DNA of 13,076 nt, taken from a virus. Its lineage: Duplodnaviria > Heunggongvirae > Uroviricota > Caudoviricetes. The stretch's first letter is position 1, and every line of letters starts with the position of its first letter. The stretch lies in IMG/VR virus record IMGVR_UViG_2778261393_000007, positions 1 to 13,076 of that record; one strand, 5' to 3'. Below the pieces are notes generated by a model. It was not told where the DNA came from, ran no database searches, and worked only from the letters and a program-made list of their open reading frames with translations. The translations under genes were made by a program, and so were the position numbers. Below are positions 4,365 to 5,519 of this stretch, piece by piece.

Positions 4365-4652
4365 TCACTGACTGCAATTTTTCGATCCAGGGTATTTCCT
4401 GAATGCCTTACCATTGGGCTGATGTAATCCCATCCCGGCATGTGCCCGGCTGATGGTTTCGCGCATCTCCCCGAAATTATCCTGCCGTGCTGGTGGGCGT
4501 GCTGCCTTGCGGATACATTCCGCGCGACGTTTTGCCGCCTGTTCCCGTGCCTTGTCATCATTCGCCAGCATGATGACCTCAGCCCACCGCGCCGCCGCTC
4601 TCCGGTACAGACCACGCGCTTCCAGTGCTTCAGCTTTGCTGTCGTGAATCAT
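4365..4652 (-). CDS. PerC-like transcriptional regulator family protein
   Basis: 95-aa ORF. N-terminal AEALEARGLYRRAAARW matches the pattern I recall for PerC/Pch-family activators; unverified. ATGA overlap with upstream gene stop. Confidence 0.55.
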   Translation of the reverse strand: MIHDSKAEALEARGLYRRAAARWAEVIMLANDDKAREQAAKRRAECIRKAARPPARQDNFGEMRETISRAHAGMGLHQPNGKAFRKYPGSKNCSQ

Positions 4653-5179
4653 GCGCCTGTTTTCTCCTTTGCTGCCCGGCGCTGACGTTTGCGCTTCTCA
4701 TTCAGCGCCACCAGCCGCGTTTCTGCCTCCTGCTGTTCCTGTGGTGTCACTTCCCCACATGGCTGGCCTTTCAGGTCGTAGCGTACCCCACCAGCCATTA
4801 AGGCGCGGTAATAGCGCGGACACTGCGCATAAGATGCCAGCGTCGCACGTAATGCCCCTGGCCCGAATGCCAGCCCCCTGACGGCGAGATCCTGCATCAG
4901 GTCGTCGAATATCCCCACCTTAAGCGGCTTCGGTGCTTCCCGGCTGAATAATTCAGGCCACAGTTCGATAAGGCGGTTAACGCGTCTGCGGTTTTTGCGC
5001 TGTCGTTTGGTCATATGCCGCCACGGTGTCGCCCCTGTGGGCTTTTGCTGCACTTTCTGGTTACCGGGCATCACTTTATGTGCCGATGTGGTTTTATCCT
5101 GCTCCTGCGCCGCCTGCGTCGTTTTCTGCGGCGTGCCGTAAATGCCTTTCGGTTTTCTGTTAATGGTCAGCTTAGTCAT
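4649..5179 (-). CDS. ProQ/FinO-domain RNA-binding protein
   Basis: Segment PKPLKVGIFDDLMQDLAVRGL...RATLASYAQCPRYYRALMAGGVRYDLKGQPCGEVT parallels the ProQ N-terminal FinO domain (PLKIGIFQDL ... RVDLDGNPCGE). Start uncertain: ATG 5179 (ATGACTAA overlap with upstream stop) or upstream ATGs at 5194/5212/5227. Confidence 0.65.
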   Translation of the reverse strand: MTKLTINRKPKGIYGTPQKTTQAAQEQDKTTSAHKVMPGNQKVQQKPTGATPWRHMTKRQRKNRRRVNRLIELWPELFSREAPKPLKVGIFDDLMQDLAVRGLAFGPGALRATLASYAQCPRYYRALMAGGVRYDLKGQPCGEVTPQEQQEAETRLVALNEKRKRQRRAAKEKTGA

Positions 5180-5519
5180 GCTTTGCCCCATCGTTTTTAC
5201 TGATTGTTTCATGCCCGGCACTTTCATCTACCGGATACCACGCAAATGATCCAGGTTCATCAGAAAGAATGAATTTTGTGTTTGGCAAATACATGCATTC
5301 GTAAAAACCATCTTCCTGATGATACGGTGCCATTCCATACTCACCAGTAAGAATCGGTAATATTTCAGAATAAATTTCTGAATCACCAGAATAAAACACA
5401 TCACAAATCGCCCATGCTGCAATCGGACTATACCAGTCGTTGCCATTATCATTCCTGAATTTTGCCCACCAACCCTGAACCGCTGGCGAAATATTTTTGG
5501 GTATAGCTTCAAGAAACAT
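5172..5519 (-). CDS. hypothetical protein (115 aa)
   Basis: ATG 5519 preceded by AAGGGGG SD. First gene after the iteron/AT-rich region; no motif recognised. Confidence 0.6.
   Translation of the reverse strand: MFLEAIPKNISPAVQGWWAKFRNDNGNDWYSPIAAWAICDVFYSGDSEIYSEILPILTGEYGMAPYHQEDGFYECMYLPNTKFILSDEPGSFAWYPVDESAGHETISKNDGAKHD

Follow-up and report, generated by a model that had tools for sequence, protein, structure and literature searches.

The window, that is, the whole stretch of DNA analysed, is 13,076 nucleotides long and comes from a Caudoviricetes record in IMG/VR (IMGVR_UViG_2778261393_000007). It carries a 13 kb element located between yicG and yicC, with genes for an integrase (int), an AlpA-like HTH protein and a P4-family (alpha-like) primase, a set of iterons, perC, and TerS-like and head-protease-like packaging-redirection genes. 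Set against the published layout of PICIs (PMC6092414, PMC11773190), the element has the features of a Gram-negative PICI: about 10-15 kb in size, int, alpA, a primase followed by an origin, packaging redirection, a specific att site, and no lysis or tail genes. The features in and around the gene of interest are as follows.

4285..4325, minus strand: second terminator-like hairpin (T2), without conservation among related islands
4336..4361, minus strand: intrinsic terminator T1, AGGCCGGGA-UUUU-UCCCGGCUU with a U tail, 3 nt past the perC stop
4365..4652, minus strand: PerC-family gene (Pfam PF06069, E=2e-32; synteny; junctions)
4649..5179, minus strand: FinO-type protein, probable true CDS, 176 aa, start M17, stop TGA at 4649-4651 (homologue N-termini, Shine-Dalgarno sequence, stop overlap, PGAP start in island L002, dN/dS 0.05-0.4)
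4676..4990, minus strand: ProQ/FinO domain, residues 80-184 of the 192-codon ORF (Pfam PF04352; AF2 and Foldseek)
4991..5179, minus strand: N-terminal arm, 63 aa (alignments A1, A2 and A4; pI 11.2; pLDDT; purifying selection)
5144-5170, minus strand: conserved arm motif LTINRKPKG (homologue alignments)
5180..5227, minus strand: upstream in-frame codons M1-S16 of the mechanical ORF, not conserved in homologues
5172..5519, minus strand: 115-aa ORF, phrog_27268, in a slot held by an SSB gene in most related islands
5590..5872, no strand assigned: probable replication origin, with an AT-rich stretch and the 9-mer ACTGTTCAC / GTGAACAGT repeated at least 11 times across both orientations
5868..7640, minus strand: P4-family primase/helicase (D5_N, DUF5906, Pox_D5; TIGR01613)

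The probable origin lies directly past the primase gene, and its repeats contain the TGTTCACC octamer. Repeats of TGTTCACC are also carried by the ori and crr of P4. The original prediction had described the whole as a P4-like element. This description fits the replicon, with its alpha-type primase and TGTTCACC repeats, but not the element, which is of the PICI type. No Pfam or PHROG match to psu, sid or delta was found among the scanned ORFs, and none of the three is annotated in the related island L001, with which about 78% of the window aligns at 97% identity. A search of Rfam for an immunity RNA of the C4/CI type, or for any other family, gave no match at gathering, the matches with E<=1 being at chance level only. 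Only the primase and iterons are P4-like, the psu/delta/sid module and CI/C4 RNA of a strict P4-like satellite not having been found. A plus-strand hairpin at 5614-5644, considered as an antisense terminator, proved to be an inverted pair of origin iterons.

The minus-strand interval 4649..5227 is an ORF of 192 codons that already bears the RefSeq name "ProQ/FINO family protein". Several candidate start codons had been predicted, and six ATGs are indeed present (M1, M6, M13, M17, M53 and M72). Judging from sequence comparison, the true start is almost certainly M17, with its ATG at 5179-5177. Nearly all of the full-length homologues aligned begin with MT(K/T)LTINRKPKG, while two have short, unrelated additional N-terminal residues. 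A GGGG Shine-Dalgarno sequence is situated 6 nt 5' of the M17 ATG, this ATG and the stop codon of the upstream 115-aa ORF overlap as ATGACTAA, and the equivalent start was chosen by PGAP in the near-identical island L002. It follows from these four observations that the protein is most likely 176 aa long, with an extension of 63 aa. Codons M1-S16 lie across the end of the 115-aa ORF and are probably the 3' end of that gene read in a different frame, and their translation as part of the FinO-type protein is unlikely.

The extension had originally been put at about 80 aa and called basic and Q/K-rich. It is basic and K/Q/T-rich as described, but shorter by the count from the likely start. Residues 1-79 of the 192-codon ORF have a pI of 11.3 and include 13 K, 4 R, 10 Q and 11 T. 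The arm consists, in order, of the LTINRKPKG motif, a disordered K/Q/T-rich linker, and a basic segment, TKRQRKNRRR, that runs into the first helix; the AF2 pLDDT is <50 at residues 1-49. FinO of the F plasmid opens with the same L-T-[IL]-[KN]-R-K motif (MTEQKRPVLTLKRKTEG), and so do many other representatives of FinO-type clusters. In the alignment with F-type FinO (A2), M1, L4 and K9 are invariant and R8 is nearly so. The protein has the architecture of FinO, that is, an LT[IL][KN]RK motif and a basic arm ahead of the domain, and the long basic extension, pointed out originally, is the standard layout of plasmid FinO, with the same motif and basic disordered stretch. Both the arm (dN/dS 0.05-0.4) and the domain (dN/dS 0.13-0.4) are under purifying selection.

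The assignment to the ProQ/FinO family was borne out by the HMM search that had been proposed for it. The match to Pfam PF04352 (E=6.1e-24) scores 84.5 bits, above the curated cut-off of 27, and extends over profile positions 5-108 of 109. The domain makes up about 55-60% of the protein, rather than the C-terminal two-thirds once estimated by eye. A sequence search of the PDB returned the N-terminal domain of ProQ (5nb9, 6.5e-12) and FinO (1dvo, 2.9e-10), along with NMB1681 and RocC. The AF2 model, with a pLDDT of about 90 across the FinO domain part, predicts helices at 58-73, 90-101, 107-118, 121-129 and 146-174 and a β-hairpin at 132-143, i.e. the helical core with a hairpin and long flanking helices expected of a FinO fold. 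Its best Foldseek match is FinO 1dvo (E=1e-6, rmsd 2.0 Å); further top matches are 3mw6, 7rgt and 7rgu, the last being a RocC-terminator complex. Roles in RNA binding have been described for ProQ residues K35, G37, D41, K54, R58, Y70, L71, R80, D82 and G85 (PMC7192607). Eight of these ten are kept in the island protein, K35, G37, D41, R58, Y70, R80, D82 and G85 corresponding to K103, G105, D109, R127, Y139, R149, D151 and G154, and the eight are invariant or almost invariant across the clade. The equivalents of K54 and L71 are changed to P123 and Y140. By sequence and predicted structure, the gene encodes a FinO/ProQ-family predicted RNA-binding protein and is an ordinary member of that family.

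Among characterized proteins, FinO of F-like plasmids is the closest in layout. The two share an N-terminal motif, a basic disordered arm, a helix, the core and a long basic C-terminal helix, they are similar in length (186 aa vs 176 aa here), and the domain of 1DVO is 35% identical over 106 aa (E=7e-17). Both are encoded by a distal gene of a mobile-element operon. However, the island protein is no orthologue of FinO: it scores 61.7 bits against a cut-off of 136 with NCBIfam FinO (NF010317), its identity to plasmid FinO is only 30-40%, and its gene resides on a chromosomal satellite, always linked to perC and without tra genes (none are found within the window) or FinP. The island protein shares with ProQ the FinO domain and the conserved residues listed above, but it has the N-terminal arm and lacks the linker and C-terminal Tudor-like domain, its C-terminus being 8 residues past the domain; with 57.3 bits against a cut-off of 127 for NCBIfam ProQ (NF003434), it falls short of the equivalog level. 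FopA/YafB of IncI1 plasmids (partner Inc/repZ) also belongs to a mobile element and has a FinO domain and a basic N-terminal region, and FopA controls a replicon function (PMC7491321). In contrast to the island protein, FopA/YafB is plasmid-borne and forms a separate branch with its own distinct N-terminal domain by description; membership in this branch was rejected, as the identity of 35% over 83 aa (E=1e-7) is confined to the domain. RocC of Legionella and NMB1681 of Neisseria have the same fold, and the model can be superposed on RocC, also in its terminator-bound form (7rgu), but these proteins differ in extensions, hosts and targets (competence) and are not associated with satellites.

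The FinO-type gene is followed immediately by perC, whose ATG overlaps the FinO stop codon (ATGA), and the two are translationally coupled. In related loci the finO-perC junctions are overlapping or ≤2 nt, with the Shine-Dalgarno sequence within the 3' end of finO; such coupling at the level of translation is usual, not universal, in the clade. Every FinO-seeded locus with enough flanking sequence has PerC or a perC remnant adjacent, down to 33% FinO identity. The gene order is primase, origin, SSB or the 115-aa ORF, FinO, PerC and terminator, with FinO second to last, and the slot behind the primase is the same in islands of three different primase types. T1 is the end of the primase-FinO-PerC transcription unit, and related loci also have a terminator at its position. 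No promoter belonging to the FinO gene itself was detected upstream, where the region is occupied by the origin iterons. For PerC, the single-sequence model (pLDDT 70) shows a three-helix hairpin, and the PDB contains neither a significant structural match nor a sequence relative. While the identification of the FinO-type gene is itself routine, its constant adjacency to perC throughout the clade is new here.

Several other candidates in this region were rejected. The tandem hairpins T1 and T2 were considered as a FinP-like 3'UTR sRNA, but T2 is not conserved and the post-perC terminator is found equally in FinO-less islands; this terminator is also absent or different in some FinO islands. 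Weak plus-strand terminator-like sites at 4971-5146, within the coding sequence of finO, do not rise above chance level (23 vs 15 ± 3.7 expected) and result from the K/Q-rich character of this sequence. If PerB of the EPEC perABC operon were a FinO homologue in disguise, perB-perC would be equivalent to finO-perC, but PerB has a family of its own (PF06590), with a BLASTP E value of 0.08 and an hhalign probability of 0.5%.

A scan of species-representative genomes yielded only two loci, in E. ruysiae and E. albertii, and the genomic context was therefore drawn from E. coli genomes, look-ups of encoding contigs and IMG/VR. Relatives of the FinO-type gene are present in 1093 of 5426 complete E. 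coli genomes (about one fifth), with up to 9 copies per genome. Every one of the 1562 E. coli sites lies on the chromosome, with none on true plasmids. Among 80 icd-seeded loci from IMG/VR, 13 have both FinO and PerC, 2 have FinO alone, 15 have PerC alone and 50 have neither. The co-occurrence of the two genes in this set (Fisher p=8e-6) overstates independence, since the sampled loci are mutually related.

Upstream of the primase, at the head of the early operon, a candidate antisense RNA was found opposite the first gene.

8926..9129, minus strand: Icd-like ORF, 67 aa (RefSeq annotation of homologous islands; alignment A5)
9129..9208, plus strand: candidate cis-antisense RNA as-icd, ~80 nt (structure, covariation, folding)

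The candidate as-icd covers the Shine-Dalgarno sequence and AUG of the Icd-like ORF. It would comprise a 5' stem-loop I with an anti-SD, a terminator hairpin (about 9164-9201) and a tail rich in U. A putative extended -10 element, TGgTATGAT at 9114-9122, was judged by eye and is absent from the list of the consensus scan. In the alignment, 96.8% of the cells are paired and 9 pairs have compensatory changes; none of 500 shuffles reaches the observed value, and slid controls give 34-54%. Of the two strands, that of as-icd also has the more favourable folding energy (-23.5 vs -16.9 kcal/mol), in 44 of 46 hairpin variants. On this covariation and folding evidence, the candidate is a well-supported cis-antisense structure heading the early operon, with the shape of a FinO ligand. 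FinP and SymR are likewise cis-antisense RNAs of this kind, with a 5' stem-loop and a terminator stem-loop, a promoter inside the first codons of the target ORF (putative in as-icd) and coverage of the SD and AUG; sar RNA of P22 is comparable too. The candidate as-icd differs from all three in its target, an Icd-like ORF heading a satellite operon. The SymR model (RF01809) aligns with as-icd over its full length but weakly, at 20.8 bits against a gathering score of 61, and the relationship is therefore one of analogy and not of membership.

We favour, as somewhat more probable than the contrary, a FinO-type RNA chaperone of a PICI-type satellite that serves as a post-transcriptional accessory of the PerC regulatory cassette and not as a general housekeeping factor, because perC often occurs without FinO, whereas FinO of this clade is found only with perC. 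Once the unit is expressed, the protein would bind the base of a terminator-type hairpin and the 3' U-tail of one or a few structured RNAs, which may thereby be shielded from 3' exonucleases. By analogy with FinO acting on FinP/traJ, the basic arm could speed the pairing of sense and antisense RNAs. Besides as-icd, the finO-perC mRNA could be a target through its own 3' end. For EPEC, a passage of PMC12426089 that cites Mihaita 2025 describes an effect of ProQ, the FinO-domain protein of the host, on ler by way of PerC.

It is possible, but in our estimate rather unlikely, that the candidate as-icd is the single relevant ligand, stabilized by the protein and pairing faster with the icd leader, so that the early (replication) operon is kept silent or damped in translation or transcription, as a satellite counterpart of FinO/FinP/traJ or FopA/Inc/repZ. 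Such a dedicated switch is suggested by as-icd being the only strongly supported cis-antisense RNA of the island, with FinP-like anatomy, by an arm and domain of the plasmid type used in dedicated pairs, and by an icd element upstream in 8 of 10 FinO-seeded loci; control of replicon genes by FinO-family proteins such as FopA is also known (PMC7491321; PMC9977716). The distribution points the other way, and counts against the favoured reading as well. FinO is absent from 65 of the 80 icd-seeded islands with as-icd, and in the FinO-PerC island L016 no icd-like element was detected in the 7 kb upstream. No link was found between variants of the as-icd terminator and the presence of FinO, and neither as-icd nor the post-perC terminator, the candidates compared, co-occurs specifically with FinO. 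The strict linkage to perC would also be left unexplained.

Another reading is a ProQ-like, trans-acting moron: the integrated island would express FinO and PerC as an accessory cassette for host manipulation, in which the FinO-type protein would bind RNAs of the host or helper phage, competing with or supplementing chromosomal ProQ, and together with PerC would re-tune host regulons such as LEE, motility and biofilm. PerC-family genes of PICIs are regarded as accessory virulence regulators, one of which silences LEE1 (PMC6092414; PMC11773190), and a passage of PMC12426089 has ProQ modulating the LEE in both EHEC and EPEC, in EPEC via PerC. The cassette is also optional, FinO being present in 15 of the 80 islands, relatives of the FinO-type gene reach the copy numbers given above, and FinO domains recognize generic terminator structures (PMC9977716). 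Against this stand the promoter search described above, the position of the gene inside the replication operon beside SSB, and the narrow target sets of the plasmid-type FinO proteins studied to date, and we consider this reading likewise rather unlikely. The position of the gene, which directly follows primase and origin and in most islands adjoins SSB, could instead indicate a protein acting with SSB on nucleic acid at the origin, for example on structured single-stranded DNA or an RNA primer, and not in antisense regulation. This is very improbable, as the RNA-binding residues are conserved and SSB-PerC islands manage without FinO. To our knowledge, no FinO-domain protein acts in this way at a replication origin with SSB. 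Decaying cargo is equally improbable, with dN/dS well below 1.

Proteins with a FinO domain make up a major class of RNA chaperones in bacteria, and those studied are either plasmid-borne (FinO, FopA) or chromosomal (ProQ, RocC, NMB1681). A phage-satellite clade of FinO proteins that is locked to a PerC-family regulator is without previous characterization. What the present analysis mainly contributes is the linkage of FinO to PerC and a candidate antisense RNA, each directly testable, the naming of an already auto-annotated gene being routine. In a more specific and decidedly unlikely version, the FinO-like protein, PerC and the candidate as-icd would together be a satellite version of the FinO/FinP/TraJ circuit of the F plasmid, with as-icd gating translation of the early operon, the island FinO setting the strength of the gate, and PerC, obligatorily co-translated with FinO, being the downstream transcriptional activator. 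If this were true, islands with FinO would differ in their threshold of induction from most other islands, which would depend on the host ProQ. More generally, should the protein act on the antisense RNA of the satellite itself or on the expression of perC, satellite induction would gain a post-transcriptional level of control, and satellites may be tied to LEE and virulence regulation, in which ProQ and PerC are already implicated.

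The gene studied here encodes a FinO-type protein in an open frame of the early operon.

4649-5227, minus strand: open frame of 192 codons for the FinO-type protein

The Pfam model PF04352 (ProQ/FinO) aligns over nearly its whole length to residues 80-184 of this frame (E=6.1e-24; 84.5 bits, where the cut-off is 27), which bears out the original prediction of a ProQ/FinO domain. Neither NCBIfam model reaches its threshold: FinO scores 61.7 bits where 136 are required, and ProQ 57.3 bits where 127 are required. The protein is therefore a member of the ProQ/FinO family but an orthologue of neither. 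The top sequence match in the PDB is the ProQ N-terminal domain (5nb9, 6.5e-12), followed by FinO (1dvo, 2.9e-10), NMB1681 and RocC. AlphaFold2, supplied with 32 homologues, models the FinO domain with a pLDDT of ~90 throughout. The best Foldseek match of the model is FinO 1dvo (E=1e-6, rmsd 2.0 Å over 102 columns), and the other leading matches are NMB1681 and RocC, including the terminator-bound form of RocC. Genetic studies identified ten ProQ residues that matter for RNA binding (PMC7192607). Eight of them are retained here (K35 as K103, G37 as G105, D41 as D109, R58 as R127, Y70 as Y139, R80 as R149, D82 as D151 and G85 as G154, numbered from the 192-codon frame), and these eight positions are invariant or almost so across the clade. 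At the positions equivalent to ProQ K54 and L71, the residue is different.

The start of the protein most likely lies at M17 of the open frame. Nearly all aligned full-length homologues share the start MT(K/T)LTINRKPKG that begins at M17, with short, unrelated additional N-terminal residues in two of them. A Shine-Dalgarno GGGG lies 6 nt 5' of the M17 ATG (5179-5177), this ATG and the stop codon of the 115-aa ORF before it overlap in ATGACTAA, and PGAP places the start of the gene at M17 as well in a near-identical island. From these observations, the protein is most likely 176 aa long, with an arm of 63 aa before the domain. The arm has a pI of 11.2 and contains 10 K, 4 R, 8 Q and 10 T; its first ~49 residues form, in the AlphaFold2 prediction, a disordered stretch that leads into a basic helix. 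The long basic extension pointed out in the original prediction is ordinary for the family. F-type FinO has the N-terminus MTEQKRPVLTLKRKTEG; aligned jointly with the window protein, its L-T-[IL]-[KN]-R-K motif matches KLTINRKPKG, and many other FinO-type cluster representatives start similarly. The layout of N-terminal motif, basic arm and domain is shared with plasmid FinO, whereas ProQ has a C-terminal domain and FopA, with just 35% identity over 83 aa, is described with an N-terminal domain of its own. Values of dN/dS are 0.05-0.4 in arm and domain alike, indicating that purifying selection acts on both.

The gene had already been recognized by automatic annotation, with the RefSeq label "ProQ/FINO family protein". 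A blastn search of 5426 complete E. coli genomes showed relatives at 1562 places, all of them chromosomal; these fall in 1093 genomes, with at most 9 per genome. The clade was not found on true plasmids, where the FinO proteins are only 30-40% identical, and phage genomes gave distant matches only. The ProQ/FinO superfamily as a whole forms 4859 clusters at 50% identity. In the literature searched, the gene occurs as annotation only and no functional study was found. A pair "similar to proQ" and "PerC-like" is listed as cargo of island ROD34 of EAEC 042 (PMC2808357), and ProQ/FinO and PerC are both mentioned, in separate elements, for Enterobacter PICIs (PMC13612085).

The window is an entire island of ~13 kb, inserted between yicG/ligB and yicC.

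First genes, minus strand, right to left: integrase, 260-aa ORF, AlpA-like HTH protein, AntA/Rha-type protein
Plus strand, short and divergent: YlcI/YnfO gene
Operon, first part, minus strand: Icd-like ORF first, small ORFs, DUF4222, P4-family primase
Operon, continued, minus strand: intergenic origin, 115-aa ORF, FinO, PerC, strong terminator
Second unit, minus strand: 57-aa protein, two phrog_6216/DUF2213 fragments (head-maturation-protease-like family), TerS-like HTH protein

This is the layout described for Gram-negative PICIs (PMC6092414, PMC11773190), with a P4-like replicon. Directly 3' of the P4-family primase gene, the region 5590-5872 is a probable origin of replication: ACTGTTCAC / GTGAACAGT occurs there at least 11 times, in both orientations, and an AT-rich stretch is also present. 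Several of the repeats include the octamer TGTTCACC, known as the P4 alpha-protein iteron. The original description as a P4-like element holds for the replicon but not for the rest: the layout is PICI-type, no psu, sid or delta gene is present among the scanned window ORFs or in the annotation of a related island, and no C4/CI-type RNA was found in the window with Rfam.

Several other features of the island were noted. A DUF3800 protein (1-762, plus strand) matches component M04A of PADLOC PDC-M04 (E=8e-98), and a 163-aa protein of the overlapping gene (753-1244, plus strand) matches M04B (E=9e-74); both components of this candidate defence system at the island end are likely anti-phage cargo. 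Within 2099-3959 on the minus strand, a 197-aa ORF corresponds to positions 403-544, and a 223-aa (DUF2213) ORF to positions 115-328, of the same 545-position phrog_6216, which has weak similarity to head-maturation-protease. The two ORFs may represent a natural arrangement in two genes or a gene that was disrupted. A 174-aa ORF in this stretch has an N-terminal TerS-like HTH, and the stretch is probably the capsid and packaging-redirection module of the satellite. Where the promoters of the YlcI/YnfO gene and of the early operon diverge, there is a perfect 12-bp inverted repeat, GTGTATTTCACC / GGTGAAATACAC (9209-9256, 22 bp between arms), which varies among islands and may be an operator.

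The FinO gene has a conserved companion, perC.

4649-5179 and 4365-4652, minus strand: conserved pair FinO + PerC, usually translationally coupled, down to 33% FinO identity

Neighbours were tabulated by tblastn for contigs encoding FinO homologues of 76% down to 33% identity. In all tabulated loci the FinO gene closely follows primase and origin, with three primase families involved. An SSB gene usually precedes it, a slot filled in the window by the 115-aa ORF. A PerC-family gene or perC remnant adjoins the FinO gene in every FinO-seeded locus with enough flanking sequence, in the following orders.

FinO-PerC: window, L001-L004, L009, L014/15, L016, L020
PerC-FinO: L010/11
FinO, inserted gene, perC pseudogene: L005-L008
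FinO, perC remnant, plus a second intact SSB-PerC pair: L017/18

In the FinO-PerC order the genes overlap or lie ≤2 nt apart, with the perC SD within the finO 3' end. The inserted gene of L005-L008 (8479-9120) encodes 120-138 aa and separates finO from a frame-shifted perC remnant; this arrangement goes with the FinO variant that is most widespread (P0046, 4005 collection blocks).

A further, independent sample was drawn from IMG/VR with a 27-nt seed string of the icd region; among its 80 contigs, 13 carried both FinO and PerC, 2 FinO only, 15 PerC only and 50 neither. The co-occurrence gives p=8e-6 by Fisher's exact test over 80 loci that are phylogenetically non-independent; PerC was undetected in 2 of the 15 FinO loci. 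Since PerC occurs without FinO in SSB-PerC islands, in the 12-kb circular PICI-like record L021 and in EPEC perABC, the dependence is one-way: the FinO clade travels with perC, and perC is independent of the clade. In EPEC, the host protein ProQ, which also has a FinO domain, reportedly acts on ler through PerC (PMC12426089, citing Mihaita 2025); this is suggestive, though at second hand, of a functional link between a FinO-domain protein and PerC. The record L021 (NZ_CP148430.1; 12,152 bp, circular, deposited as a plasmid) carries integrase, AntA, Icd-like, TOPRIM/DUF927 primase and PerC genes and no FinO, and appears to be a PICI-type satellite, excised or circular, and not a plasmid. PerB of perABC was considered as a hidden FinO homologue and rejected. 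The model of PerC alone, a three-helix hairpin, had no significant match in the PDB, HTH-like or otherwise.

A candidate RNA lies at the head of the early operon.

8926-9129, minus strand: Icd-like ORF
9114-9208, plus strand: as-icd with putative -10, a predicted cis-antisense RNA of ~80 nt whose second stem-loop would be the terminator

Among the divergent FinO islands compared, the Icd-like ORF and its leader are ~92% identical, the most conserved DNA besides finO. The first ~85 nt of the ORF (~9040-9127, minus strand) show 1-2 substitutions in seven divergent islands that are otherwise 70-90% identical, an invariance extending to third codon positions, and the hairpin immediately upstream carries compensatory changes. 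It is noted that ~9040-9127 on the minus strand is C-rich, G-poor and rut-like, and contains the hairpin CCCGCAAGGGCGGG. In a strand-folding comparison of 124 loci, the strand antisense to the operon is the better-folding one for 44 of 46 distinct hairpin variants (mean -23.5 vs -16.9 kcal/mol), because C·A mismatches of the sense strand become G·U pairs. RNAalifold on a 30-sequence alignment predicts two adjacent stem-loops in the antisense orientation, with 96.8% of cells paired (34-54% in slid controls) and both sides changed in 9 pairs; none of 500 shuffles reached the observed values. The CCUC in the 5' stem-loop is the complement of the icd SD. In the 3' stem-loop, a GC-rich hairpin of 13-15 bp precedes a U-rich tract, so that it qualifies as a terminator only when read as antisense.

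A putative extended -10, TGgTATGAT (9114-9122), lies within icd codons 3-5 and would plausibly set the as-icd start at the icd AUG. The variable codon 2 (R/L/G) falls between the two, and the sole natural variant at the -10, TATTAT, alters an amino acid but leaves a good -10. The putative promoter would account for just part of the constraint on ~9040-9127. Rfam has no family for as-icd; the SymR antitoxin RNA model gives a weak full-length match of 20.8 bits, far under its gathering score of 61. Of 5426 E. coli genomes, 1673 contain the region. We propose as-icd as a candidate cis-antisense RNA that lies opposite the leader and first codons of the Icd-like ORF. As other RNA partners, the 5614-5644 hairpin was rejected as an inverted pair of origin iterons, the second hairpin after perC as not conserved, and the first terminator after perC, as a specific partner, because it is generic.

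In shape, as-icd is the kind of RNA that FinO domains bind. No other antisense RNA of the island is well supported, and as-icd could form with the protein a strictly dedicated, FinOP-like switch. However, FinO is absent from 65 of the 80 icd-bearing contigs, the as-icd variants show no association with FinO presence, and no icd element was detected upstream in the FinO-PerC island L016. A link is therefore possible but would not be a specific one, and a strictly dedicated switch appears unlikely; FinO-less islands could be served by host ProQ. A ProQ-like, trans-acting cassette for host manipulation is likewise improbable.

The gene itself is real, intact and under selection, and belongs to a PICI-type satellite as a FinO-type RNA-chaperone gene, its chaperone function being predicted; that it serves as a replication accessory or is decaying cargo seems very improbable. 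The best mechanistic reading, which we favor with modest confidence, is a chaperone that would bind terminator hairpins, as-icd or the 3' end of the finO-perC mRNA being its likeliest ligands, and would act post-transcriptionally as an accessory of the satellite's PerC cassette.
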